Source of the DNA: a virus
Reading direction: 5' to 3' (one strand)
Virus record (IMG/VR): IMGVR_UViG_3300043821_000021
Length of the DNA: 37,733 nucleotides
The notes under the pieces are model-generated. The model saw nothing but the letters and a program-made list of their open reading frames with translations, did not search any database and was not told where the DNA came from. The number at the start of each line of letters is the position of its first letter. The first letter of the stretch is position 1. Below, piece after piece: positions 1 to 36,199 of this stretch. The position numbers and the translations under genes were made by a program.

Positions 1-255
1 GGCACGATAGATTCATCATATTGGGAAATCACCGGCCTCTGCATACGGAGATAAAAGGGCCAATAATCTGGCTGCATATAAAGAAAAAATCAGCATGCTT
101 AATCTATCAGATTACTGGAACATACTGAATTAATGAGTATTACGGCTTGTGGCATCGGGACAAAATCGGGACAAAAACGGCCCAAAACCAGCTGATGACA
201 GTAGAAAAGCACATTGATAATGAATAAGTTAGAAAATGATACTCAGGGTGGGCGA
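1..255. repeat. Terminal direct repeat, copy 1 (identical to 37479..37733); indicates a circular genome or assembly overlap
   Basis: The first 255 nt (ggcacgatagattc...actcagggtgggcga) match the last 255 nt base for base. The repeat carries the 3' end of the lipoprotein ORF (1..54) and the 5' end of the integrase ORF. Confidence 0.95.
154..175 (+). repeat. Tandem 11-bp repeat ATCGGGACAAA x2 upstream of the integrase; candidate arm-type or regulatory site
   Basis: atcgggacaaa occurs at 154..164 and again at 165..175, in a non-coding stretch between the lipoprotein gene and int. Confidence 0.5.
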
Positions 256-1554
256 ATCTCGTCCTCTCCGCAAAATCTCTCTAACTCAGATAATATGAGC
301 GAGTTAGAGAGTTGTTCCGAAAAAAACGGGACAGCATCGGGACAGCATTTTTCTTTGTACAGCACCCTCGTGGAGCTGGCCAAAGAAAAAAAAATGTGTT
401 TTTCTCAACCAAAAGCTTACGTGCAATATATACCACCACGGCTCACCAAGGGCAAAGTCTGGTATATCTCATATTACGTACAGAATCCGGAAACCGGGAA
501 GCTCAAAAGATTACGAGTAAAGTTGGATAGGTATCATTCCGTGAAGGAAAAGCTGGCAGCTGCCAGGAACATTTCCGCTGACCTGGAAGAAAAGCTCGCT
601 CTGGGATGGAATCCGATGATAGAGAGCAAAGCTCCGAAAGCATATTCAAAACTATTCAGAGCGCTCGATTCTTTCCTCACTGTCAAAGACAGAGAGCTGG
701 AAGGCAATTCTCTTCGCAGCTATCATTCTTACGTGAAGATCATAAAGCAATGGCTGCTTGCGAATGGATATAAAGAAGATATGCTCGCAGTCTCATTCAC
801 TGACAGAGTGGCGTTATCATTCCTGGATGAGATCGAGCAAACGAAATCTCCTAGAACATACAATAACTATGTAACATTCTATCGGAGTCTCTTTGCCTGG
901 ATGATGGATAAAGGATATATAGCGGCCAATCCTTTCAGCAATCTGAAGAAGAAGCCAAAGCGCCTGACAAAGAAGATCCGGAGAGTGGTCAGCGATCAGG
1001 AACTCATCCGGATAGTCAATTTTCTAAGCAAGGATAATCCGGAATTCCTGGCAATGGCCATGCTTTGCTATTGCTGTTTTCTGAGGCCGAAAGAACTTGT
1101 TATGCTCAAATGTAGGGATATCAGCTTGCGGCAACAGACGATCCATGTGAATGCGAAAATCGCCAAGAATGACAATGAATCATTCAGAACGATTCCTGAT
1201 GAGATAATGCCGCTGATGCAGAGCCTGGACTATTCGCACCCTGACTGGTTCCTTTTCGGAGAGAATATTCAGAACCATAATTTCCATCCGGCACCGAAGC
1301 AAATGAACAGCCGGAAAATTGCGAGATTCTGGGATCGCAGAGTGAGAGCGGAATGCCAACTGCCTATGGATGTGCAATTTTACAGCCTGAAGGATACAGG
1401 AATAACGAATATGCTGAATAAAGGGGTGCCAATCAATATCGTGCAGAAACAGGCAGATCACTCCAGCGTGGCAATTACCTCTCTGTATATTGGCAGAACC
1501 GCCCAAGCAGACGGAGAAATCAAGTCGGCCGACGTGCTGAATCGGAATCAGTAG
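214..1554 (+). CDS. int: Tyrosine recombinase / phage integrase (Bacteroidota phage/CTn type)
   Basis: 446-aa ORF. The N-terminal segment KGKVWYISYYVQNPETGKLKRLRV resembles an arm-type DNA-binding domain, followed by a SAM-like core-binding region. The C-terminal catalytic region contains CFLRPKEL (Arg), HSSVAITSLYIGR (His and Tyr) and LKDTGITNM. The start is uncertain: TTG at 214, ATG at 220, 295 and 394. Confidence 0.9.
   Translation: MIMNKLENDTQGGRISSSPQNLSNSDNMSELESCSEKNGTASGQHFSLYSTLVELAKEKKMCFSQPKAYVQYIPPRLTKGKVWYISYYVQNPETGKLKRLRVKLDRYHSVKEKLAAARNISADLEEKLALGWNPMIESKAPKAYSKLFRALDSFLTVKDRELEGNSLRSYHSYVKIIKQWLLANGYKEDMLAVSFTDRVALSFLDEIEQTKSPRTYNNYVTFYRSLFAWMMDKGYIAANPFSNLKKKPKRLTKKIRRVVSDQELIRIVNFLSKDNPEFLAMAMLCYCCFLRPKELVMLKCRDISLRQQTIHVNAKIAKNDNESFRTIPDEIMPLMQSLDYSHPDWFLFGENIQNHNFHPAPKQMNSRKIARFWDRRVRAECQLPMDVQFYSLKDTGITNMLNKGVPINIVQKQADHSSVAITSLYIGRTAQADGEIKSADVLNRNQ
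327..348 (+). repeat. Tandem 11-bp repeat CGGGACAGCAT x2 (second CGGGACA pair)
   Basis: cgggacagcat occurs at 327..337 and 338..348. It shares the CGGGACA core with the pair at 154..175. It lies inside the longest int ORF but upstream of the alternative ATG at 394. Confidence 0.5.
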
Positions 1555-3070: not shown

Positions 3071-4456
3071 CTAATGCCACGTATTATCATAAGTTGAAAC
3101 AACTAGCCAGCCGCCTCCGATAGTCGAAGAGCCCACTGTTGGGGTCAGGTAATTCGTGCCGACATATATCAGCTCCCATACTTCACCTCCGGCAATCTCT
3201 TTTCTCGTACCATTGATATACAGATGCGTTGAGTTGCTGTCATTTGTGTTAACGACAGTGACCTTCTTGCCTATCTGAATCCCAGTTGTAGCTAACACAT
3301 AATCGACGCTGCTAAGATTTCCGGCGAAAAGAATAACATCCACTGGAAAATATTTGCTATCATCACTTGCAGTGCTATAGAGAGGGATAACTTTAATCGT
3401 ATCGCTCACGCCTGACAGGTTCTGCATCGTATACTGCACACCAGAATATGTCGTTATTTGACCTCTAGTTTTAAAATAAGCGAGGCGTGCACGCACCTCC
3501 ATGCAGTTACGGCCTCTATGCCCAAATTGTGTAGTACACCAGATGTCGCTGGCATAATATCTCACAGGATACATGATGGGAGTCCCATTCTCCATCTCAA
3601 CGTGGGATGCCAGCATCTTCAAATCACCTGTGATATGGAAACGGCCCTCGGAGTCTGCATATAAGTTGTAAGTATAAGAGGTGCCGTTGATATTGACAGT
3701 TGAGGAAAGAGTTGCTCCTTGAAGTATCGCAGACTTAGCTCGGAGCGTTCCATCCTGGTCAATTGTGGCATTATCCCCTACCTTTATTGTGCCTGTAGAT
3801 CCGTCAAGATCGATGGCAGGAACGAAGTCAGCATTCGTATAGTCATCGCTTTCTTCACCGTTAAGCGTGCCATGCGTCGAATAGAGATGGTAGTGCCCAT
3901 CGCTATCCTCTTTGATAAAGAAACCTCCTATCAGTCCGGATGATGCGGAAATCTGGCCCTTGAACGTGCCATCCTCAGCATATACACGGCCATCCGCATC
4001 CACATGGAATTTGGCATCAGTCGGATTAACTGCGCCTACCCAGATAGGATAGTCGCCGCCTCCCAGCCCCACATTTATCGTCGTGCCATCGCTTTTCATT
4101 ACCAGCAGCTGATTGGTCTGAGCAAACCGCAGCACGGCATTGGCGGCAATGATCATCGATGTATAGATGGGATTCATCATATTGTAAGGAGTCCAGTAAC
4201 TCGATCCCTCCTGTGGCTGATTATCCGCACTCGAAGTGTGAGTGATCACGCATTGCCAGGCCGTGAAGGTATTGAGGCCGGTGGTTACTGTTACCACATC
4301 CAGGAACCGTGGACTGGCGACATCTTTGCTGTCGTTATGATACTCCGTGCCTGCCTGCCATTCGGTGATACGTATGATCTGGCCCTCAATGCTGGAGCCA
4401 TCATGACCGTCCTTTGGCCTGCGCCGAATACAGATATGCCCTGATGCCGTTATCAT
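3071..4456 (-). CDS. Tail fibre / receptor-binding-like structural protein
   Basis: 461 aa, rich in Gly/Ser/Thr/Asn beta-type sequence (DADGRVYAEDGTFKGQISASSGLIGGFFI). It lies at the distal end of the tail module just downstream of the DGR. Confidence 0.4.
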   Translation of the reverse strand: MITASGHICIRRRPKDGHDGSSIEGQIIRITEWQAGTEYHNDSKDVASPRFLDVVTVTTGLNTFTAWQCVITHTSSADNQPQEGSSYWTPYNMMNPIYTSMIIAANAVLRFAQTNQLLVMKSDGTTINVGLGGGDYPIWVGAVNPTDAKFHVDADGRVYAEDGTFKGQISASSGLIGGFFIKEDSDGHYHLYSTHGTLNGEESDDYTNADFVPAIDLDGSTGTIKVGDNATIDQDGTLRAKSAILQGATLSSTVNINGTSYTYNLYADSEGRFHITGDLKMLASHVEMENGTPIMYPVRYYASDIWCTTQFGHRGRNCMEVRARLAYFKTRGQITTYSGVQYTMQNLSGVSDTIKVIPLYSTASDDSKYFPVDVILFAGNLSSVDYVLATTGIQIGKKVTVVNTNDSNSTHLYINGTRKEIAGGEVWELIYVGTNYLTPTVGSSTIGGGWLVVSTYDNTWH

Positions 4457-4842
4457 TTCGTAAGCTTTGAAATCTCCGTTACTGCTTTCTTCGCTATCTC
4501 CTTAGCATGGGCCCTCCATGCCTGGAAGCTCTGATATTCGGAGATATATTCAGTGCGTTTTGCATCAGTGATGTCGCTCTCCGTGTCTTTGGCGCTCTCA
4601 TAGTTGGAGATCAGAGCCTGAACATCATCCTGAGAATATCTGTCGTTCACTATGGCGGCAATAAGCTGGCCATATTCCCTGCCTGTGGCATCGACATTCT
4701 CGCAGTCGTGATATGTCTCCGGATCATTTTCCATGGTCTGTTCCTCTTCGCTGAAATCGAAGAAAAGTCTGGTTATGTTACCCTCTAGGATAACCAGCAC
4801 GCCACTCTCTGGCAGCGTCTTGATTGCGTAATTTGATTTCAT
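4453..4842 (-). CDS. Hypothetical acidic protein
   Basis: 129-aa ORF coupled to the next gene by an ATGA overlap. Strongly acidic composition and no recognisable motif. Confidence 0.5.
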   Translation of the reverse strand: MKSNYAIKTLPESGVLVILEGNITRLFFDFSEEEQTMENDPETYHDCENVDATGREYGQLIAAIVNDRYSQDDVQALISNYESAKDTESDITDAKRTEYISEYQSFQAWRAHAKEIAKKAVTEISKLTK

Positions 4843-4853
4843 ATTCTATGGTT

Positions 4854-5447
4854 CTATTCGTCAAAATAATATGCGCTTTTGCCATCACCCAATGGCCTGC
4901 GCCTGATTACCACTCCATCGACCGGAAATATCTTCGTGCCTTTCTGCTCAGCAGCTCTTGCCTTATCAAGAACGTTCTTCAGGTTGAAGGCATTTGTGAT
5001 GAACTTGCTTTTCTGATGATTAGCATCCTCGAAAAGCACGCAATATCTTCCATCGCCTTCCTTAGTCTTGATTCCAGCCTCGAAGTCCAGAACAGTAATA
5101 GGCACATTGAGAATGTCCGTTATCCTCGTGCTCTTCACATCGAAGAACTTCTTGCCATCCTTCGTGAATTGATCCTGATGTATTCCTTTTGAAGCGAAAC
5201 TCATATCATTATTCGTAATTACTCTCCATAAATTTTTACAGTTACCCCACTTGCACCAACCCCAGTAGCTTGCCAATACCTGCCTCCGTCTCTTAGGATT
5301 CTGAATCCTGTGCGATGTCCTGGCGAATTCCTGCTTTATGCTCTTTCTTAGCCGGACTCCATTCGTGGCGAACACATAGCCAAGATAATCAATGCTTCTT
5401 CCTTTTATGGCTACGCTGCCTTTTCCTATGTTTCCTTTTACTTCCAT
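4854..5447 (-). CDS. DGR reverse transcriptase, segment 3 of 3 (thumb plus a C-terminal extension of about 116 aa)
   Basis: RSIDYLGYVF and LASYWGWCKWGN match the thumb region of DGR/group-II-like RTs. The extension after the internal ATG at 5204 has no canonical RT counterpart. This segment is +1 relative to segment 2. Confidence 0.85.
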   Translation of the reverse strand: MEVKGNIGKGSVAIKGRSIDYLGYVFATNGVRLRKSIKQEFARTSHRIQNPKRRRQVLASYWGWCKWGNCKNLWRVITNNDMSFASKGIHQDQFTKDGKKFFDVKSTRITDILNVPITVLDFEAGIKTKEGDGRYCVLFEDANHQKSKFITNAFNLKNVLDKARAAEQKGTKIFPVDGVVIRRRPLGDGKSAYYFDE

Positions 5448-5709
5448 TCACAAACTCACCTATAGGCGCTACAATCACATTTCCTTTAACCACCAGGCCT
5501 GCCTCATCATTGAGCCTAACATATTCATCCAGCATCTGCCACGCCTCGTGTTTCGTCCTGGCCAATCCCACAACATCATCGCAATATCTCAGATAGCACT
5601 TGCACCGGAATTCCTCCTTCATGCGATGGTCAATGTCGCTCACGGAATAATTAGCCAGTGGCTGGCTTGTGTATGCCCCAATAGGCAGCCCTCTTCTGCA
5701 TTTCATCAT
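5389..5709 (-). CDS. DGR reverse transcriptase, segment 2 of 3 (palm: GxxxSQ and YxDD)
   Basis: GLPIGAYTSQPLANY is the DGR-diagnostic [ILV]GxxxSQ motif and YLRYCDDVV is the catalytic YxDD. This segment is +1 relative to segment 1. Confidence 0.9.
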   Translation of the reverse strand: MMKCRRGLPIGAYTSQPLANYSVSDIDHRMKEEFRCKCYLRYCDDVVGLARTKHEAWQMLDEYVRLNDEAGLVVKGNVIVAPIGEFVNGSKRKHRKRQRSHKRKKH

Positions 5710-6280
5710 CTAAAGCCTCTTGTACCTCATCTTCTGAATCATAATTCAAAATCGCAATCTCGATGAGCCGTATGAACTTCTCATCTTTGAACTTTCTCCT
5801 CAATATCTCCAAAAGCTTTTCATGCTGAATGCTCTGATAATATTTCTTGCAGTCGGCCTTCCAGAACCATTTATATTCCGGATAGCGCCTCAGCATCATC
5901 TTCAACCGCCTCACTCCATAATGCAAGCCTTTCCCCGGCACGCATGCGAAAGAATCGGATATGAGTCTGTGATAAATATCCTGCCCAATCACGTTCATAA
6001 TAGCATGATGCAAGATTCGCCACGGATAATACTTCTGAGTTCTGATCTCCCTCACCTTACCATGACGGTCTGAGATCATAAGGCACTTATAGTCAGGGTC
6101 TGGGAAGTTAAGATTGAGAATCATTTCACGCAAAGCAAGAAGATCTTCTTCAGCATGAAGATTATGCCTTCTTATATGCCTGTTTTTCTCAACTTTCCCA
6201 GCCTGAGCCTTTTTGTCAGCCAGTCTCAAATTATCCATGTCTGCAATCTTTTCAAGCAGATAACCTCTTCGTTTTACCAT
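5651..6280 (-). CDS. DGR reverse transcriptase, segment 1 of 3 (N-terminus, fingers, motif A)
   Basis: MVKRRGYLLEKIADMDNLRLADKKAQAGK is an N-terminus typical of DGR RTs. Also present are YPWRILHHAIMNV, SFACVPGKGLHYG, and KADCKKYYQSI (motif A Asp). Confidence 0.9.
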   Translation of the reverse strand: MVKRRGYLLEKIADMDNLRLADKKAQAGKVEKNRHIRRHNLHAEEDLLALREMILNLNFPDPDYKCLMISDRHGKVREIRTQKYYPWRILHHAIMNVIGQDIYHRLISDSFACVPGKGLHYGVRRLKMMLRRYPEYKWFWKADCKKYYQSIQHEKLLEILRRKFKDEKFIRLIEIAILNYDSEDEVQEALDDEMQKRAAYWGIHKPATG

Positions 6281-6482
6281 ACAATCACTGTCTTTTCAGA
6301 CTATATTAGCACGAACTTGCAAGATCGTGATGCCCAGAGTTTTCGAGAATCAACCTACTAGCACTGCTTGCTCTCTAAGAGAGCCTTTCCGCAATATGTT
6401 TTCTGACATCACGGCCATAATAGCCGTTACGCTGCATTACTTGATGCAGGGTCAAGGTGCAGGGAATCCGTTTCTCATATTC

Positions 6483-6594
6483 TTGTATGGCGAGAGCCGA
6501 TATTCGCATTCGCATTCGACCAGGCGTTATTCGTATTCGCATAACCGAGACCGGCTAACGAGCCGTTATTCGCATTCCCACCCCACAGCGGAAG
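6483..6594 (-). repeat. DGR template repeat (TR)
   Basis: 112 bp matching VR at 95 of 112 positions. In the VR reading frame it encodes LPLWGGNANNGSLAGLGYANTNNAWSNANANIGSR, with AAT/AAC Asn codons at the variable sites. It lies between the target gene and the RT. Confidence 0.95.
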
Positions 6595-6694
6595 ACCAAG
6601 CTCTCATTCCCTTCTACCTACCGGATGCCGAAATGACATCCGGATTTCTTTAACAAATATATCCTTACAAGGCCCGGAATCATAGGACAGAAAA

Positions 6695-7996
6695 TCACAG
6701 GCTTGCGATCAGGTTAGATCCTGACATCCATTGCAGCCTACCATAATAGGCAAGGCGAGAGCCGATAGACGCATGCGCAGCCGACCAGGCGTTAAACGTA
6801 TCCGCATAACCGAGACCGGCCAACGAGCCGCGATTCGCAAACCCACCCCACAGCGGAAGCTGCCCAGTAGCGCTATTATAATTATAATCGCACCAATACG
6901 ATGAAAAATTAGCACCGCCAGTCTTAGCGAATATGTCAAAATATTCTCCCAAAACCAGAGTTTTAGGATACACACTGCTTGTTTGCCTCACTATTTGCCT
7001 ATAAGTGCCATTCGGGTGTGTCGTAAGCTCACTTGAAGTCGGCAATCTGTTACCCTCATAGATAAACACCTCGCTGCCTGTTTGCCCCTCATTAGCTGAC
7101 GATCCGAAATATAAACCTTGCACCATGCACCAATACCAGCACCATGGATCTTCAATGCCGAAGAAGTTTACTCTGCTGGCATCCGTGGTTGAAACATTAT
7201 CAGAATTCGTCAAAGTGATATCTATTTTCCCACAGGAATCGCCTAATGACTTTGTTGCCCCAGTCAGAAGAGCGGAAGCCTGAGTGAAAACGTTTGTTCC
7301 ATAGCCGCTGCCACCTGTTCCATAACCGACATTTGTCTGGCAGTTAGGATTACCAAATTTCGACAAATTCAGCATGATCATCAATCTCTGATGATCGTAG
7401 TTGATAAGGCCGAAATTTTTCCCATTGACCTGCGCCGCATTCCAGAACTGGGTGATAGCCTTGGATGCCGTAACATTAACTCCACTCCTGGAAGTCAGCG
7501 CTGCGCCATTCATATAGCCCATATAAGCGCCGAAACAGCTTTCTTCGATATAATGGCCGCCGATTGGAATCTGGCTCATCCAAAGACAGGTCAGGCCGGA
7601 AATCTCATCGGTCTGAACGAGATAGTAGAGCCGTGGAGCATAGAACATCACATGGCCCTGAGTCTCATCGAGAGCCGTACCGTCTGCGAACACTGAACTA
7701 TCCGTCGCTGAAAGCTTAGCCGCCTTTCCGTCGTTGGTCAGGAAGATCCTGCCTACATGCGACAAATACTCATCCCTCAGAACAGTGTTCCCTACTACGC
7801 CCCATGCCGGAGACGATGATTTCTCCAGAGGCACACCCCATGCCACCTGCTGGAGTAAAGCCTTTTGCCCTTGATTGAGAGCTGCCTGCAGCTCATCCAC
7901 AGTAATCCTGCGTATAGATCCGCCGATCTCCACCAGGATTGAATCGGTGCCCAATATGGTAGTCACCGAATCTACATTACCTAAATTTTTGCTCAT
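6695..7996 (-). CDS. DGR variable (target) protein; tail-fibre/receptor-binding candidate with a C-type-lectin/FGE-like C-terminus
   Basis: 433 aa. VR covers aa 380-416 (LPLWGGFANRGSLAGLGYADTFNAWSAAHASIGSRLA). The WGG...G..G.GY...N.W......G.R pattern is typical of CLec-fold DGR targets. The gene sits in the tail-fibre region. Confidence 0.9.
   Translation of the reverse strand: MSKNLGNVDSVTTILGTDSILVEIGGSIRRITVDELQAALNQGQKALLQQVAWGVPLEKSSSPAWGVVGNTVLRDEYLSHVGRIFLTNDGKAAKLSATDSSVFADGTALDETQGHVMFYAPRLYYLVQTDEISGLTCLWMSQIPIGGHYIEESCFGAYMGYMNGAALTSRSGVNVTASKAITQFWNAAQVNGKNFGLINYDHQRLMIMLNLSKFGNPNCQTNVGYGTGGSGYGTNVFTQASALLTGATKSLGDSCGKIDITLTNSDNVSTTDASRVNFFGIEDPWCWYWCMVQGLYFGSSANEGQTGSEVFIYEGNRLPTSSELTTHPNGTYRQIVRQTSSVYPKTLVLGEYFDIFAKTGGANFSSYWCDYNYNSATGQLPLWGGFANRGSLAGLGYADTFNAWSAAHASIGSRLAYYGRLQWMSGSNLIASL
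6748..6859 (-). repeat. DGR variable repeat (VR)
   Basis: 112 bp at the 3' end of the 6695..7996 gene. All 17 differences from TR are at TR adenines (coding strand). Confidence 0.95.
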
Positions 7997-13197: not shown

Positions 13198-15363
13198 TTA
13201 GGACACGGAAACGGACTCCAGCCAGATATAGAGAGTGTCTGTCTCAACCACCTTGAATTCCGATGTCTGGTTATGATTGGTCAGGTAGGAGTAGCCGAAA
13301 TCGACAGTCCGCTCTATCAGCGCCGACTTCAGGCCAGCTGCCGACGGAGCTGCAAGGAAGAAGTTCTTCTTTCCGGCTGAATAATCATCGTTGTACTGTG
13401 CGATGATGGTCTTATCTGAATAGTTTGCCTGAATCTCAGCCTTCTTATCCTTAACCTGGCTCTCGTTGACCTGCCACTTATACGGAGATTCCGAATATTC
13501 TACTGCCGGGCTGTCGGATATACCGTCTGCGAAGTCCTTAACCAGATAGAATTTGGCTTCCTGGCAAGCAGTGTGTTTGCCGATCTCGTATTTCATAGAG
13601 ACTGGCAGCAGCTTCTGGCCGTTGTAGATCTTAAGCCGATACATCTTGTAATCAAGCAGATCCTTAACGCCCAGATCCCACTTCCCTGAGAGCTGTGTGA
13701 GATTGTTCAGCAGCATCTTGTTGTACTGCTTGAAGAACATCTCCATCAGCGCATCATTGGTGAGGCCCAGCTTTCCCTCACGCAGATTGCCCAGATTATC
13801 GTATTTCTGCGTTGTACCATAGTAATAATGTCCGCCGATAGTGTTTCCGCTGGAAACACGCCTGATGCCCCCACGTCTGTTGCCTGTCGTTACCACCTCC
13901 GTCGAGCCGGATTGCTCAGAGGATTCGGACTTTGAGGATAATCCGGCATACTCAACGATGATGATATCCTGATCCTCATCCTTAGCGCTGTCATTATACG
14001 TCGTGTTCCGGTGTTTTCTGTCACCGATATACGGCATAAGCACGCCATGGACGAATACCATTGGCGGCATCAGGTCAGCCGGAGAGATTTCCTCTGTCTC
14101 ATCGGAGTTATCCTGATCATAGTCGAAATAGTTAGATCCAAGATATTTCCAGAGGCTTACGGTCTCCGAATCCCCAGATGAGCCCGACCTGGAAGAGCCG
14201 GAAACCCTTCTGAGATGGTCGGAGAATCGGGTCTGAATCTCATAATATGCTCCAGTGGCGGCATAGAATGCCAGCCCCATATTGTCAAGCGTAGGCTTTG
14301 CCGATACAGCGAAATCCTTGCAGTAATGGTATTTCTCTATCAGCGCTTTGAGAGTAGATGCAGCCGGTGCCGCACCGTCAAGCTTCGTATCAGACTTTAG
14401 CACCACTCTCTTTGACTTTGAATATGTCAGAGTCAGCTGATCGCAGAGCTTCTTGCTCAGATCCACGTCGAATGAGCCGGAGAGGATATCTTCCAGCAGC
14501 ACCAGGTCAACTGTCTTTGTGGCCGGATAGAAGATAGCCTCTGCATGGAACTTTTTCTCAATCCATTCAAGAATTTCGCTGACCTTCTTATTCGGCACCA
14601 GGTCTGAATAGTCTATCTTGCCGTTGCAGATTACGTCGCTGCAGTTGTGCAGCAGGATAATATCCTTAAGATAGTCGCTAGTCTTAAAACAGTCCTGCCC
14701 AACAGTGTAGCCGCACAGCTGGAACATCGTTTCAAAGAATGAATAAAGCTTCAGGAACGGAGCAATGCCATAACCGTCCGGAACGTGCACTGTGTCATCT
14801 CCCTCAGTAACCAGCCTGGCATCATGCAGCAATGGCCGTATGTCATCACTTGATGAAGTGTCAGGCTCATTATTGACCTGATAGGAGCCGCCATCCTCAT
14901 CGTAGTTGACAGCTACAGGGATAATCCGGAAATCGCTGTCAGTCACTTCACCTTTATAGACCTGGAAGAGCCAGTCATACCAGTCGGTCGGTGTTGTGTA
15001 AGTGGTCAGCACCTTCTGAGAGAAAAGGTCTTTCAGGTTCTTATCCTTGTAATTGGCATAGAAATCCGACTCTTCGAGAGCTATTGCGCAAGATATTCCG
15101 TCTTTAGAAACCGAGTTAACCACCAGAGTGCCTTTCTTGCGATATACCCCATTAGAGAGTATGGCAGGGAACATGTTCACGAACCTTGCATTCCTTCCAG
15201 GTCTACCTGGCTGCGAAAGCTTCGCCAGATCTTCCGGAGTGGCTGGGATGGTCGCCGCAACACTCGATGTGCCATCATCGCTGAAAAAAGCGTTATTGCT
15301 GTCTATCTCGAATGAGAAATCTTCAGGAAGCGACAATTCGCCTTTATCTACGAGTAATTTCAT
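13198..15363 (-). CDS. Tail/baseplate structural protein (distal-tail position)
   Basis: 721-aa ORF that overlaps the tape measure stop by 4 nt (ATGA). This is the position normally held by the distal tail protein or hub. Confidence 0.5.
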   Translation of the reverse strand: MKLLVDKGELSLPEDFSFEIDSNNAFFSDDGTSSVAATIPATPEDLAKLSQPGRPGRNARFVNMFPAILSNGVYRKKGTLVVNSVSKDGISCAIALEESDFYANYKDKNLKDLFSQKVLTTYTTPTDWYDWLFQVYKGEVTDSDFRIIPVAVNYDEDGGSYQVNNEPDTSSSDDIRPLLHDARLVTEGDDTVHVPDGYGIAPFLKLYSFFETMFQLCGYTVGQDCFKTSDYLKDIILLHNCSDVICNGKIDYSDLVPNKKVSEILEWIEKKFHAEAIFYPATKTVDLVLLEDILSGSFDVDLSKKLCDQLTLTYSKSKRVVLKSDTKLDGAAPAASTLKALIEKYHYCKDFAVSAKPTLDNMGLAFYAATGAYYEIQTRFSDHLRRVSGSSRSGSSGDSETVSLWKYLGSNYFDYDQDNSDETEEISPADLMPPMVFVHGVLMPYIGDRKHRNTTYNDSAKDEDQDIIIVEYAGLSSKSESSEQSGSTEVVTTGNRRGGIRRVSSGNTIGGHYYYGTTQKYDNLGNLREGKLGLTNDALMEMFFKQYNKMLLNNLTQLSGKWDLGVKDLLDYKMYRLKIYNGQKLLPVSMKYEIGKHTACQEAKFYLVKDFADGISDSPAVEYSESPYKWQVNESQVKDKKAEIQANYSDKTIIAQYNDDYSAGKKNFFLAAPSAAGLKSALIERTVDFGYSYLTNHNQTSEFKVVETDTLYIWLESVSVS

Positions 15364-18056
15364 TTCTTGCCTACGATTGATTTTATCTTATTATCCAGCT
15401 CCGTCGCCGCATTGATATCAGAGTAAACGACATAAGCCTTCAATGGCATCTGCTGCAGAATCTGAGTCATCAGCTCGTTGAACCGGCTTATTGCATTCAT
15501 GTCGCCGCCTGAGATGGAGACATCCGGAACAGTGCCGTTAGGTGTTGTTGCGCCTCCATCCGCAAAGCCCTTAATCCCAGAATGTGAGTAGTTGCCTGAT
15601 ACCCTAGCGGATTCAAGCCGTGCGAATGTTACAGGATTGGCCCTTACCATTGCAGCCGGTGCCACCCACTCATTAGCATGCACTACTCCCACCTCCTGAT
15701 AATCATTGGTAGCTGACTTTGTATAGCCGCCATGAGCGTAACCGGTCGCCACCCTATTGCCGACAGACGTATCAGATGAACCGGTTGAAGAAGAGGAAAC
15801 TGAAGCATTCATGATCGCATTGCGCTGTGCAATGATAGTGGCAATCTGAGCGGCTGTGGTTACTGCCATGATAGCAGCTCCGGCAATACCTGCAGGCCAG
15901 CCCAGTTCGGCAAAGGTTTTCACTATTGCCTGTGCGCCATTCGCAACGGTTTTGGCGATGGATATAGCCATATCCGCATTGGCGTATTTCTTTCTTACGC
16001 TCAGCTTCTTCTTCTCGTATTTCTCCTCAATCTTCTCTCTCTCTTCCTCGTTATCGCCTGCCGCCGTGAGCTCTTTCTGCATCTGTGCATCCAGCCTGGC
16101 TGTGGCTGCCTGCTGCAGAGCGCCGGTCATCGTGTCGAGTTCTTTCAGGTAGGATTCACCCTGCTTCAATCCATCTTGCAAAGTGGATAGATTGGTATCA
16201 CGTATCTGTTGAGCATAGCGCTGGATAATCTCCTTCCTCTTTGCCTGATAATCCTCTTCGGAGATCAGCTTCCGCTCATTGAGGTCATCCAGTTCCGCAA
16301 GCTCAGCGTCCCTCTGTTCCTCCAGTGCCGCAACCGGATGAAGTTCGTCAGTGATATCCTTAGCCTTGCCCATCAATTCCGCAAGACGCTCAGCTTCACG
16401 CTCAGTCTCATCGCCGATCTCATCCATGAGCTTCGCAACCTCATCATTCGCCTGCTTGATCGCCTCTGCGTTAATGGAGGCGACATCCTTTTCCATGTCC
16501 TCACGGAATTTCCTCACTTTTTCCGCCTGCTTGACCGTGAGATCCAGAATCTGGTTCTGATAGTCGATAGTGGACTGCTTGTAACGCTCGGAAATCGCTA
16601 TCTTCTGTTGGAGCCCTTCCTGCTGTATGCTTGCGATCTTTGCGTTATACATTTCTTCAGTATATTCGCCGTTGGCATAGGCCTCTTTCGCTTGAGCCTC
16701 CATCTCCTTCGTGTGCTCATCGGCCTGTGCAAGCTCTTCCTTATACGCCTTTTCCGCTGCCGACTGATGCTCTCTGGCCATCTCCTGGCGCAGAGAGCTT
16801 AAGGTCGTATTCATTCGAGTCGTCTGACTATAACGATCAGCATCAATCTTATTCAACTTTACAATGGCATCTACATAATTCTTAACCATCTCATCATTGG
16901 AGAGATTGTATTTATCCACCGTCTCTGCAACATTTTTCACTCCCTGATCAGTGGTTTCCTGCAATTCCTTCAGTTGCTTTTGCGCATTCTCTATTCCTCT
17001 GGCTGCATTGCCCATTGTATATGCATCGTTGCCTGCAAACATCTGAGTCTTTCTCAATGAATTGATAGTAGTAGTGAGATCCTTAACTTTAGAGTTATAC
17101 TCTTGTGCCTGCAGAATCAGATCTCGATTGTTGTTATACTCTTTTATAAAAGCATCTAATTCCTCATTGGTCATGTGAGTACGAGTCTGAAGCTGACTCT
17201 GTGCCGCTCCTAATTCATCTGTAGCGATAGCTTTACGTTTATCAGCAAGCTTATTTTCAATGTCAATCGCTTTTTGTGCTGCGTCGATTCTTTCTTGATC
17301 AGTGAGGCTAACATCACGCATCTGCTGCTTGTATTTCTCAATCTGAATACTTTTTTCTGATTCCTCGATTGAGAGAGAATTGTTTCTTTCGAAGATCTCA
17401 TCAAGAATCTGCCTTACCTTAACTCCATTGGCATAGCTTTCTTTCATGTCAGCTACCAGCTGATTCCATCCTTTGCCGGATGAAAGGTCTGCGACGAATG
17501 CTCCATAAGCATCTTTCATTCCTCCGGTGAATGCCTGCCACTGATCGCCTACTAACTGAGTCTGAGCGATCATATCGGAGCCGAACTTCTTAATCAGCGC
17601 TATTGCGCCGGTGATCATTCCAGCCCATCCGATTTTAGTAAAGAACCCCCCAAGCGTTTTCTGCGCTGTCCGTGACTGGTTATTTAGCTCATTCATCCTG
17701 TCTCGCACCTTCTTCAGCTGGTTCGCCGCCGCCGTGAACTCCTTTGTGTTGGGTGAGAGCTTTCGGAGCTCGCTGTTCAGTTTCCTGGCCGCTGACTGAA
17801 GCTCATTGATACTTGCGCCGTTCAGGTTGTTCATCGTAGCCTGGAAGCGCTTCATCCCTTCGTTGATGTCTTTCTCCGATGCCGTTATCTTTAGCAATTG
17901 CTTTTGCAGGCTGTTAAACTCCTTCGAGTGGAACGGAGTCTTTGACATCTGGGTGCGGATCTCTTCGGCCTTTGCCCTCAGCTCATCAAGATGCTGCATC
18001 GCATCCTGATTATTCAGAGTAATAACGGATTCTGTATAAACTGTATTCTTTGCCAT
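15360..18056 (-). CDS. Tail tape measure protein
   Basis: 898 aa with long Glu/Lys/Gln/Ala-rich coiled-coil stretches. Two Gly/Ala-rich hydrophobic segments are present (GWAGMITGAIALI, WPAGIAGAAIMAVTTAAQIATIIAQ). It lies directly upstream of the large tail proteins. Confidence 0.8.
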   Translation of the reverse strand: MAKNTVYTESVITLNNQDAMQHLDELRAKAEEIRTQMSKTPFHSKEFNSLQKQLLKITASEKDINEGMKRFQATMNNLNGASINELQSAARKLNSELRKLSPNTKEFTAAANQLKKVRDRMNELNNQSRTAQKTLGGFFTKIGWAGMITGAIALIKKFGSDMIAQTQLVGDQWQAFTGGMKDAYGAFVADLSSGKGWNQLVADMKESYANGVKVRQILDEIFERNNSLSIEESEKSIQIEKYKQQMRDVSLTDQERIDAAQKAIDIENKLADKRKAIATDELGAAQSQLQTRTHMTNEELDAFIKEYNNNRDLILQAQEYNSKVKDLTTTINSLRKTQMFAGNDAYTMGNAARGIENAQKQLKELQETTDQGVKNVAETVDKYNLSNDEMVKNYVDAIVKLNKIDADRYSQTTRMNTTLSSLRQEMAREHQSAAEKAYKEELAQADEHTKEMEAQAKEAYANGEYTEEMYNAKIASIQQEGLQQKIAISERYKQSTIDYQNQILDLTVKQAEKVRKFREDMEKDVASINAEAIKQANDEVAKLMDEIGDETEREAERLAELMGKAKDITDELHPVAALEEQRDAELAELDDLNERKLISEEDYQAKRKEIIQRYAQQIRDTNLSTLQDGLKQGESYLKELDTMTGALQQAATARLDAQMQKELTAAGDNEEEREKIEEKYEKKKLSVRKKYANADMAISIAKTVANGAQAIVKTFAELGWPAGIAGAAIMAVTTAAQIATIIAQRNAIMNASVSSSSTGSSDTSVGNRVATGYAHGGYTKSATNDYQEVGVVHANEWVAPAAMVRANPVTFARLESARVSGNYSHSGIKGFADGGATTPNGTVPDVSISGGDMNAISRFNELMTQILQQMPLKAYVVYSDINAATELDNKIKSIVGKK

Positions 18057-34269: not shown

Positions 34270-34653
34270 TTACTGGATCGCCATTTTAGCAGCTCTCACT
34301 TCATCCATCCTCTGAAGCATCCACTTTCGCTGGAGCGGCGTGTCAACATCCCAGTATTGGAAGATCTGTATGTTGGCTCCCAGTGCGAAATCTAGCTCTG
34401 TATGGCAGCCCAGACTCTCGTTCCAGCCTTTAAGCTGAATCAGTCCGTCACAGTATTGAAGCTGTTCCAAGCCGTTGATTACATATTCAGCCCATGTGTG
34501 ACACTGATTCTGGTAAGGGATTGTATAAGGGTTCACCGGCTCAAAGCCGAAAGCTCTCAGTTTTTCCTCCATATTGTCGAAAGCTTTTCTCGCCTTCTTA
34601 GGATCTAGCCCTGTAATAGGGCCGCTGATGAATATTTTATATTTATTTGTCAT
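34270..34653 (-). CDS. DUF4406 / nucleoside 2-deoxyribosyltransferase-like protein
   Basis: The N-terminus YKIFISGPITGLD...FEPVNP resembles the DUF4406 signature (ISGPMTG...NP). 127 aa. Confidence 0.45.
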   Translation of the reverse strand: MTNKYKIFISGPITGLDPKKARKAFDNMEEKLRAFGFEPVNPYTIPYQNQCHTWAEYVINGLEQLQYCDGLIQLKGWNESLGCHTELDFALGANIQIFQYWDVDTPLQRKWMLQRMDEVRAAKMAIQ

Positions 34654-35135
34654 ATCTCTCCGAATAATGGAATTTCCGACCCTGGCGTTATCTTATATGA
34701 AGCGTAACGCTTACCTGTTTGTTCGTCACGTATCATCGTGGTAGTGATATCCCAGCCCTTGTCTTTCAGATCAGCGATTCTAGCTCCAAGGCGAAACGTG
34801 CCGAACATTTTGAGCGCTTTCATAGGCGTTATTGAATTACCCTCTTTGAGATAATCCAGTATTCGCTTACACTGTGATCCTCTGGATGCCTCGTTTGGAT
34901 TGTCGTTAGCTTTCATATCTCTACAGTGTTTTTGATTGCCTTTCTCTCTCTGAGTGATCTCTTGAATGCCGCTACTTGCCTGAGCCGCACGCTTGTTCTC
35001 TCTAGTCCGTGTATTCTCGCATTCTCTACAGTAACCATAGATGTAGCCCCATTTGTTCCTGTAATAATATTCTTCTGTTCTAGGCAGAATTCTGCCACAT
35101 TTTGGGCATCTTTTTGTATCTCTTCCTTTGTACAT
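34650..35135 (-). CDS. Zn-ribbon plus winged-HTH DNA-binding protein
   Basis: The N-terminus has CPKCG...CRECE (four Cys). The C-terminus ILDYLKEGNSITPMKALKMFGTFRLGARIADLKDKGWDI matches the wHTH pattern LG..RL..RI.-L...G..I. Confidence 0.5.
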   Translation of the reverse strand: MYKGRDTKRCPKCGRILPRTEEYYYRNKWGYIYGYCRECENTRTRENKRAAQASSGIQEITQREKGNQKHCRDMKANDNPNEASRGSQCKRILDYLKEGNSITPMKALKMFGTFRLGARIADLKDKGWDITTTMIRDEQTGKRYASYKITPGSEIPLFGEI

Positions 35136-35227: not shown

Positions 35228-36199
35228 TCAGCCTTTCCCCTCTCCATCTCCATTTCTGTATTTTATTTTCCACTCTTCGATAGCTCGGATAAGTTCATCA
35301 GCATATTCTATTGCATTGTATTTTTCCGGATCTATTCCCTGAAGGCCTGCCTCAAAGTTCAGATCTGCTAGAATATGCTTACTCATGCGCTCATGAGCCT
35401 CTATTGCAAGTTGCCGTACCTCTGCTAATGTCATCCCCGGTTTGGTCTCCGATGGAATGTATGATGAAGGTGTAAGGTTGGCATCATTTGCCAGCACCCT
35501 TTCAACCGAGACAGTGATTTCTTTGCCGGTCTGATGGTCGCAGAACCGAATATTGTCAATCGGATAAAAATCCTTTTTGAATACAATAAGAGCTGTGGCT
35601 ATAGAAGTATCGGCGAAATAGCCGCCCTCTATCAGCGTTACGCTTTCAATGATTCTTTTCTCCACGATCCATCTTCTTATCTTGCCTTCCCTCTGGCCTC
35701 TGTAGAGGATTCCAGGGAAATTCAAAACGGCAGCTGTGCCTGGATTGGCAAGCACATAGATTATATGCATCAAGAAAGCGAAGTCAGCTTTGGATGGTGG
35801 AGGCAGGCACGGCGCATCCTTAAATCTAGGATCATCCGCTTTGACTTTATCTGGCTCCCATGGTATGGAAAACGGATAATTCGCTACTATCGATTGGAAT
35901 TTACAATTAGGCCAATATGGATCAGTAAGAGTATTGCCGCCTACGATGTAAGCATTTGTTAAACGTTTCTGTGCTATTTCTGCTTGTTTATAATCCAACT
36001 CCTGTCCATATTTCCTTATGGTGTCAGGAAACACAGCCAGAAGGTTACCGCTTCCACATGTCGGATCATATACCTCATTCGCTGGATTTACGATGTCTCT
36101 AAGCATAACTGCAAGCCTGGAGTCAGTATAGAACACTCCCTGTTTTTTGAAATCTTGCCTTATGCTCTTAAGATTATGTCTGTCTTTGAACTCTCCCAT
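35228..36199 (-). CDS. N6-adenine DNA methyltransferase (gamma-type motif order), orphan
   Basis: Motif I is VYDPTCGSGNLL and motif IV is VANYPFS (an NPPY-type variant). No partner restriction gene is present in the genome. Confidence 0.85.
   Translation of the reverse strand: MGEFKDRHNLKSIRQDFKKQGVFYTDSRLAVMLRDIVNPANEVYDPTCGSGNLLAVFPDTIRKYGQELDYKQAEIAQKRLTNAYIVGGNTLTDPYWPNCKFQSIVANYPFSIPWEPDKVKADDPRFKDAPCLPPPSKADFAFLMHIIYVLANPGTAAVLNFPGILYRGQREGKIRRWIVEKRIIESVTLIEGGYFADTSIATALIVFKKDFYPIDNIRFCDHQTGKEITVSVERVLANDANLTPSSYIPSETKPGMTLAEVRQLAIEAHERMSKHILADLNFEAGLQGIDPEKYNAIEYADELIRAIEEWKIKYRNGDGEGKG

Follow-up and report, generated by a model that had tools for sequence, protein, structure and literature searches.

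A diversity-generating retroelement of a temperate phage with its reverse transcriptase in three overlapping, conserved frames: comparative evidence favouring three chains over two frameshifts

IMG/VR virus record IMGVR_UViG_3300043821_000021, analyzed here over its whole length of 37,733 nt (the window), carries a diversity-generating retroelement (DGR) whose reverse transcriptase (RT) is spread over three overlapping open reading frames (ORFs). Comparison of related loci on balance favours an RT made as three separately initiated chains over one chain produced by two +1 ribosomal frameshifts. The locus adds a new member to the LoVEphage/Quimbyvirus lineage of DGRs, here in a different phage with a smaller genome. 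The three-frame RT is itself an already published observation: Benler et al. 2021 (Microbiome 9:78, PMC8008677) described the layout in Quimbyvirus, proposed two programmed frameshifts and reported adenine-specific variation in the variable repeat (VR). LoVEphage was described by Van Espen et al. 2021 (mSystems), and a 2025 Nature paper cites both the Benler work and the LoVEphage description for the same phage. No experimental follow-up of the three-frame RT was found in the literature. What is added here is comparative evidence for three chains over two frameshifts, a single origin of the layout with later re-fusions, a conserved DGR RNA, and an architecture without Avd but with an OB-like domain.

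All coordinates are those of the window, and the DGR cassette lies on its minus strand. RT ORF1 (5651-6280, minus strand, 209 aa) encodes the N-terminal extension, the fingers and palm motifs 1-3, with the motif-3 Asp within KADCKKYY (5837-5860). ORF2 (5389-5709, minus strand, 106 aa) is in the +1 frame relative to ORF1, overlaps it by 59 nt and starts with ATGATG (5709-5704); it contains motif 4 (GLPIGAYTSQ, 5662-5691), YCDD (5575-5586) and a basic tail (KRKHRKRQRS, 5410-5439). ORF3 (4854-5447, minus strand, 197 aa) is in turn in the +1 frame relative to ORF2, again with a 59-nt overlap and with an ATG at 5445-5447, and encodes motif 7 (GRSIDYLGY, 5376-5402), the thumb and a C-terminal OB-like domain that runs from ~5207 down to 4857. 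The Pfam family RVT_1 is matched by ORF1 at positions 20-97 and by ORF2 at positions 115-185, while the PHROG family phrog_1423 is matched by ORF1 at positions 95-271 and by ORF3 at positions 365-516, the latter together with phrog_19665. For each of the three ORFs the best PDB sequence match is the RT of phage BPP-1 (bRT), and they are collinear with its single chain: residues 2-176 of ORF1 match residues 2-171 of bRT (PDB 8ub7_A, E 4e-9), ORF2 matches residues 178-236 and ORF3 residues 254-319. An earlier reading of the window made from its letters alone (the sequence-only reading) had described a complete DGR with an adjacent RT carrying the GxxxSQ motif. IGAYTSQ and YCDD are indeed there, and the order of target, template repeat (TR) and RT is as described, but the motifs sit in the second of three overlapping frames rather than in one gene, and no member of the Avd family was detected by Pfam in the 17 ORFs scanned, which include all the neighbours of the RT.

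Of 126 complete related loci, 114 share this +1,+1 layout, among them LoVEphage and prophages from Bacteroides in culture, and it is also seen in PV4-TP1 and in 18 of 18 first-round relatives from IMG/VR, where 391 relatives were found. Among related loci the ORF overlaps range from 47 to 206 nt, and the frame pattern and the catalytic motifs are kept down to ~50% amino-acid identity. The ratio of nonsynonymous to synonymous substitution rates (dN/dS), where computable, is 0.05-0.36 in each of ORF1, ORF2 and ORF3; all three are, judging from these substitution patterns, under purifying selection in their own frames.

For a comparison of the two junctions between the frames, conserved motifs served as anchors in 38 lineages with less than 90% nucleotide identity between them. 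All 38 have an ORF3-frame ATG at junction 2. This ATG consists of the last two bases of an ORF2-frame codon and the G of the next one, and the ORF2-frame codon is AAT (13 lineages), GAT (10), TAT (8) or CAT (7), and never NAC. Elsewhere in these genes the NAT fraction is 0.586 and NAC accounts for 41%, which gives p ~1.5e-9 with the lineages taken as independent, a value that is overstated because the lineages are phylogenetically related. Since NAT is used for four different amino acids and NAC for none, selection appears to act on the ATG rather than on the residue in ORF2. At junction 1, 36 of the 38 lineages have an ORF2-frame ATG, and in its place the other two have TTG, with the same Lys codons after it; similar A-rich Lys/Arg codons follow all three starts. 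In addition, the RKRQRG stretch of the ORF2 tail is conserved as protein through switches between AGR and CGN codons, and it therefore seems that ORF2 is read past the ORF3 ATG and that the stretch is dual-coding.

Among the lineages compared, no slippery motif and no shift-prone P-site or A-site codon is conserved at the junctions. The codon in the P site of site 2 is free to vary (AAA, AAG, CGC, AGC, GGC, CGT, GGT, ATG, AAT); L012 and L018 have a 0-frame GGG and the RAVPIG lineage an AGC, with NGG at site 1 absent from the latter. No 0-frame stop was found at the shift sites. No tRNA genes were found in the window, and therefore there is no candidate for a frameshift-suppressor tRNA in it. 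Three separately initiated chains are thus the better-supported reading of the junctions, one that we hold to be somewhat probable, with two +1 frameshifts in second place.

That second account is the published interpretation (Benler et al. 2021, PMC8008677): one RT polypeptide of ~470 aa would be made via two programmed +1 ribosomal frameshifts, as proposed for Quimbyvirus. We consider it unlikely, though of real weight; the unshifted products would then be truncated by-products, and a low shift efficiency would keep the level of RT low. Much of what speaks for it also weighs against separate initiation. Both transitions are +1 in all 114 loci. The 0-frame codon at both junctions is mostly a rare-type Arg codon, AGG or CGG, that overlaps the +1 Gly codon, and a conserved, A-rich polybasic tract, which is lost in re-fused forms, lies directly 5′ of site 2; a +1 frameshift could be promoted by either feature. 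At site 1, GCG-AGG/CGG resembles the Ty3 frameshift site, which is GCG-AGU-U. There are also single-chain RT relatives, presumably functional, and an RT made as one fused chain would therefore be able to work. Furthermore, initiation at an ATG within a translated ORF is usually inefficient, we know of no description of an RT active site split between polypeptides, and the choice between three chains and one draws on the conservation of DNA. Two programmed frameshifts, however, leave unexplained why an incoming-frame start codon is kept at both junctions throughout the 38 lineages by constraint on synonymous sites, and why ATG is exchanged for TTG rather than lost. They also fit poorly with the variable codons at the shift sites, with the lack of a 0-frame stop there, with overlaps that range from 47 to 206 nt, and with a window lacking a possible suppressor tRNA; to our knowledge, there is no precedent for a gene with two consecutive +1 frameshifts. 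Transcriptional slippage was rejected, as site 1 has no homopolymer run, and so was stop-codon reassignment, as ORF1 ends in TAA and the frames differ.

A profile search with ORF3 recovered many RTs of 430-550 aa that are encoded in one ORF and share the ORF3 thumb and C-terminal domain. In a rough neighbour-joining tree, the three-frame RTs form one clade, within which P0241 and P0053 are nested, while the sister clade (the L121 and L143 types) and the outgroups are unsplit. P0241 is fully fused, and P0053, found on 52 contigs, is fused at site 2 only. On this tree the three-frame layout has a single origin with secondary re-fusions in P0241 and P0053. Neither of the two has the basic tract, and P0053 also lacks the Met at the site-2 junction. 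Among the RTs examined, those in three frames have a conserved GKKKxRKRQRG tract (5410-5439 in the window, at the end of ORF2; loci L037-L042), and the re-fused and the ancestrally single-ORF relatives lack it. With this distribution, it seems to be tied to the split state, through subunit association or recoding, and not to catalysis.

The unsplit sister clade (L121, 3171-3310; P0245, P0256, P0258 and P0261) carries an additional conserved segment, [YL]CxWA[SD]..P, ahead of motif 4, and this segment resembles the ORF1-frame reading of the motif-4 nucleotides. A nucleotide profile of junction 1 matches L121 twice in tandem with an offset of 59 nt, i.e. 3n+2, the offset needed to fuse the frames. 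The relic copy in L121 scores better than 298 of 300 shuffles, and L143 gives nothing. These matches are suggestive only of a fusion of ORF1 and ORF2 in the sister clade by a 59-nt tandem duplication.

The sequence-only reading had aligned a 112-bp TR and VR with 17 mismatches, all at TR adenines, of which it counted 26. The gapless alignment of 6483-6594 with 6748-6859, at an offset of 265 nt, does have 17 mismatches, every one of them a T in TR on the plus strand and hence an A on the coding minus strand, and the count of 26 adenines as well as the quoted TR and VR translations are correct on re-analysis. The outer 6 nt (6483-6488 and 6748-6753), however, do not belong to the repeat. They hold 4 of the 17 mismatches, their VR side is the same in all four VR alleles of this phage, and in every relative the homology between TR and VR stops exactly after the A-free block TCGGCTCTCGCC; because of this constancy and this boundary, the true repeat is taken to be 106 nt. 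TR thus runs from 6489 to 6594 (minus strand), with 22 adenines, and VR from 6754 to 6859 (minus strand), with 13 mismatches to TR, all at TR adenines. The probability that 13 of 13 mismatches fall on 22 A positions out of 106 by chance is 3e-11. Of the TR adenines, 21 of 22 are at codon positions 1-2, and there are 9 AAY codons.

The A-free, GC-rich 3′ end of VR, TCGGCTCTCGCC (6754-6765, minus strand; TR counterpart at 6489-6500), resembles an initiation of mutagenic homing (IMH) boundary. It is nearly invariant at the 3′ end of the repeats among relatives, mostly exact and in a few cases with 1-3 substitutions. No conserved hairpin was found 3′ of VR in the window and the relatives examined. 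VR ends 56 nt before the stop codon of the target gene (59 nt to the last base of the ORF), and a search of both strands of the window found no second, remote VR.

Contigs of the same species from independent samples were retrieved by exact-protein look-ups; exact-pattern scans of IMG/VR with the VR flanks and with an adenine-masked TR gave no match. These contigs have an identical RT ORF1 protein and DNA that is 97.5-99.8% identical. Four VR alleles and two TR alleles occur among them; the VR alleles differ only at TR-adenine positions, which is the restricted polymorphism that the sequence-only reading had proposed to look for. In the closest pair, L023 and the window are 99.81% identical over 3701 nt, 6 of the 7 differences lie in VR at TR-adenine positions (p = 4e-9), and the RT region has zero changes. 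As near-identical contigs carry VR alleles that differ only at TR adenines, these comparisons confirm the locus as a genuine DGR that has been active recently.

The second TR allele (allele B, in L021, L024-L028 and L030-L035) differs by C7T, T37A and T76G, of which T37A adds a mutable adenine. The two substitutions that do not involve A, C7T and T76G, are also found in the cognate VRs; a TR allele and its VRs that share such changes point to transfer from TR to VR. One VR allele is repeated in many ERR1202xxxx samples, which suggests a single circulating strain in that cohort. Over a wider range, a TR/VR pair is detectable in 30 lineages with a three-frame RT, mostly with at least three quarters of the mismatches on TR adenines, and the LoVEphage-type loci (n=35) have 32 distinct VRs and only 5 TR variants.

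The same alleles bear on whether the RT is a decaying pseudogene, with the VR differences being historical or made by another RT in trans. Degenerate copies do occur among the relatives: in L089 and L091, ORF2 is truncated by a stop after YCDA, in L144 (Lepagella muris NM04_E33) ORF3 is broken, and in P0104 a deletion has fused ORF2 with ORF3. We nevertheless regard decay of the RT in the window as very improbable, given that the frame pattern persists to ~50% amino-acid identity with low dN/dS and intact catalytic motifs, that VR alleles differ between 99.8%-identical contigs with an unchanged RT region, and that scans of window ORFs against Pfam and PHROGs turned up no second RT. Errors of sequencing or assembly in a single-ORF RT, for which the A-rich regions and the old metagenome contig L053 (IMG/VR metagenome 2065487001, where a 1-nt difference in an A-run, itself possibly a sequencing error, fuses ORF2 and ORF3) might be invoked, are refuted to near certainty by assemblies made independently in several studies and from several samples, which give one and the same sequence without indels in the RT region, by the agreement of isolate genomes and deposited phage genomes, and by the lack of a homopolymer run at site 1.

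The repeat is flanked by a conserved, structured RNA. The spacer between TR and ORF1 is 208 nt long and strongly conserved, and it contains an Sp-like element (6331-6471, minus strand) with a three-way junction formed by P1, P1a and P1b and with helices P2-P4. A duplex closes TR: its 5′ strand, GGUAGGUAGAAGGGAAU (6606-6622, minus strand), is preceded by a hairpin at 6621-6643 and pairs with 6456-6467, the 3′ strand, which lies ~20 nt downstream of TR inside the 6331-6471 element. This pairing covaries among lineages, as GGGAAU/AUUCCC, GGGAGUG/CACUCCC and GAGGAAGU/ACUUCCUC. In alignment A3, the helices P1, P1a, P1b, P2, P3 and P4 are 85-98% paired, compared with 34-43% pairing in slid controls. 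In the same alignment, both partners have changed in 23 pairs, a number that 1 of 500 column shuffles attains, and neither the observed covariation score nor the paired fraction is reached in any of the 500. Helix P5 of the hand-drawn structure is not supported, with 26% pairing in A3, and is probably misaligned. Folded alone, the TR-RT spacer is not unusual in stability (z = -0.45), and the structure is thus evident only through covariation.

A covariance model (R1) built from 14 sequences matches once per locus and always between TR and RT in 46 of 46 sources, among them LoVEphage, isolate prophages and the unsplit relatives L121 and L143; the window scores 147.8 bits. No Rfam family was found for the RNA flanking TR, either at the gathering score or at E<=1.

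The target gene (6695-7996, minus strand) encodes a 433-aa tail protein with VR near its C-terminus, and it matches phrog_5302, annotated as ‘tail protein’ (E 3.5e-33). The order of target, TR and RT within a tail region, as the sequence-only reading had it, is borne out by this match and by the tail module of a temperate phage in which the genes lie. Its assignment of a lectin fold finds indirect support. The AlphaFold2 (AF2) model of the target has a predicted TM-score (pTM) of 0.81, and the top Foldseek matches in the PDB are the DGR variable proteins TaqVP (5vf4; E 1e-5, probability 1.0) and Mtd (1yu4), but the TM-scores to both are only 0.35-0.41 and the predicted local distance difference test score (pLDDT) of the VR segment is below 50; because of this poor prediction and these low TM-scores, the model makes a lectin fold likely only by way of these structural matches. 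By analogy to BPP-1, switching of host range or tropism is a reasonable inference.

An accessory gene, avd or of the HRDC type, is not universal among DGRs. No ORF was found between the target and the RT in the window, and no stem-loop directly after TR, the place where Avd binds in BPP-1. ORF3, for its part, runs ~115 aa beyond bRT, and this additional domain is predicted with a pLDDT of 75-87 (AF2) and a b1-b2-b3-helix-b4-b5 topology. Its Foldseek matches are weak (E >= 0.009) and mostly to OB folds (PrgE, Teb1 OB-A, SSB, AB5 B subunits). A role of the domain in holding nucleic acid would be in keeping with such a fold, but the OB assignment is drawn from the topology and these matches, and this too counts against an RT of the kind proposed below.

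Met82 of ORF3 (~5202-5204 in the window) is invariant, and many database proteins of 100-120 aa start there and consist of the OB-like domain only; phrog_19665 is a 105-aa family of this kind. From one and the same ORF3 DNA, gene calls of 197 aa and of 116 aa were made, depending on the contig (L023-L025). Identical DNA with differing calls indicates that at least some of the short OB-only proteins are artefacts of gene calling, and a stand-alone OB protein in other phages is possible.

The window is a temperate, siphovirus-like genome of ~37.7 kb, with a tyrosine integrase (214-1554, plus strand), a tape-measure gene (15360-18056) and a head protease. Directly downstream of RT ORF3 lies a 129-aa acidic ORF (4453-4842, minus strand) without a Pfam or PHROG match, which has a counterpart of 131 aa at the same position in LoVEphage. 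Other genes of the window, all on the minus strand, are a DNA methyltransferase-like gene (35228-36199), a DUF4406/nucleoside 2-deoxyribosyltransferase-like gene (34270-34653) and a winged-helix gene (34650-35135). Among cultured bacteria, relatives occur as prophages of Bacteroides, Phocaeicola and Muribaculaceae.

LoVEphage ranks with the most prevalent temperate phages of the gut. The window shares with LoVEphage/Quimbyvirus the succession of tail proteins, a target of ~435 aa, TR, a three-frame RT and a conserved ORF of ~130 aa, as well as the structured RNA and the confinement of VR variation to adenines. TR is 80-84% identical to that of LoVEphage and is the sole stretch of the window found by megablast in the phage collection; similarity to deposited phages at the DNA level is limited to TR. 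In contrast, the proteins are 54-64% identical, the genome is ~37.7 kb rather than 71 kb, and there is a single VR, unlike in Quimbyvirus, which has a second, remote VR in a defence island. The window also lacks tRNA genes, of which nine are reported for LoVEphage (PMC8525569). In the LoVEphage record MW660583.1 (L001), the RT note (‘RT_G2_intron’) is on the first RT ORF only, ORF2 is unannotated, ORF3 is given as ‘hypothetical, no HHsearch hits’, and two small spurious coding sequences lie over TR.

The BPP-1 DGR (mtd-avd-TR-brt) has the same adenine-specific transfer from TR to VR in the C-terminus of a tail protein, an RT collinear with that of the window over bRT residues 2-319, and repeats that end in an A-free, GC-rich block. 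It also has a duplex between RNA upstream and downstream of TR followed by a structured spacer; the cPRT-stop duplex and the Sp elements of its ribonucleoprotein are described in bioRxiv 10.1101/2023.10.23.563531. Unlike BPP-1, the window has neither avd nor an Avd-type stem-loop directly after TR, its RT is in three ORFs with an extra OB-like C-terminal domain of ~115 aa, and no conserved hairpin follows VR in its lineage. DGR RTs in a single ORF of 430-550 aa (P0257, P0269, P0245/L121, P0261/L143 and P0241) have the same domains and, where tested (L121 and L143), the same RNA, but lack the RKRQRG tract. Polymerase domains in separately translated chains that reassemble are found in gp43A/gp43B of T4-like phages and in the split PolB of archaea. 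Those enzymes are DNA-dependent and encoded by separated genes, whereas the pieces of the RT in the window overlap in different frames.

In the mechanism that we propose, the TR-containing transcript would be held in a structured RNA, made of the TR-closing duplex and the multi-helix element 3′ of TR, and would be reverse-transcribed with misincorporation opposite adenines. The complementary DNA (cDNA) would then replace VR at the C-terminal, ligand-binding tip of the tail protein and so alter up to ~12 mostly Asn-coded residues, with a possible switch of tropism. As to the enzyme, we infer that the RT is made from three overlapping cistrons, each with a conserved start codon at which its translation begins, and that one enzyme is assembled from the three chains. 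Chain 1 would contribute the N-terminal extension, the fingers and the Asp of motif 3; chain 2 would supply the basic tail and motifs 4-6, which include GxxxSQ and YCDD; and chain 3 would bring motif 7, the thumb and the OB-like domain. If the chains are indeed separate, the catalytic site would be shared by chains 1 and 2. Avd is missing, and its role of holding nucleic acid may fall to the OB-like domain of chain 3. Taken as a whole, a naturally split, three-chain RT that draws its catalytic Asps from two polypeptides and works without Avd, via an OB-like domain and a dedicated RNA, is a proposal that we see as evenly poised between right and wrong.

DGRs of gut phages are common, and as a DGR the element is ordinary; the point of interest is how the RT is produced in a widespread lineage. 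Annotation pipelines that expect a single RT ORF would miss or mislabel elements of this kind. The conserved start codons make the five-year-old question of RT expression experimentally simple. The architecture without Avd, with an OB-like domain and a structured RNA, would be a second form of DGR ribonucleoprotein to set beside the BPP-1 structure. If three chains are indeed made, this would be the first natural multi-chain reverse transcriptase and the interpretation as two frameshifts would be overturned. It would also mean that the palm of an RT can be built from separate polypeptides, which would bear on the evolution of RTs and on split or inducible tools for DGR mutagenesis.

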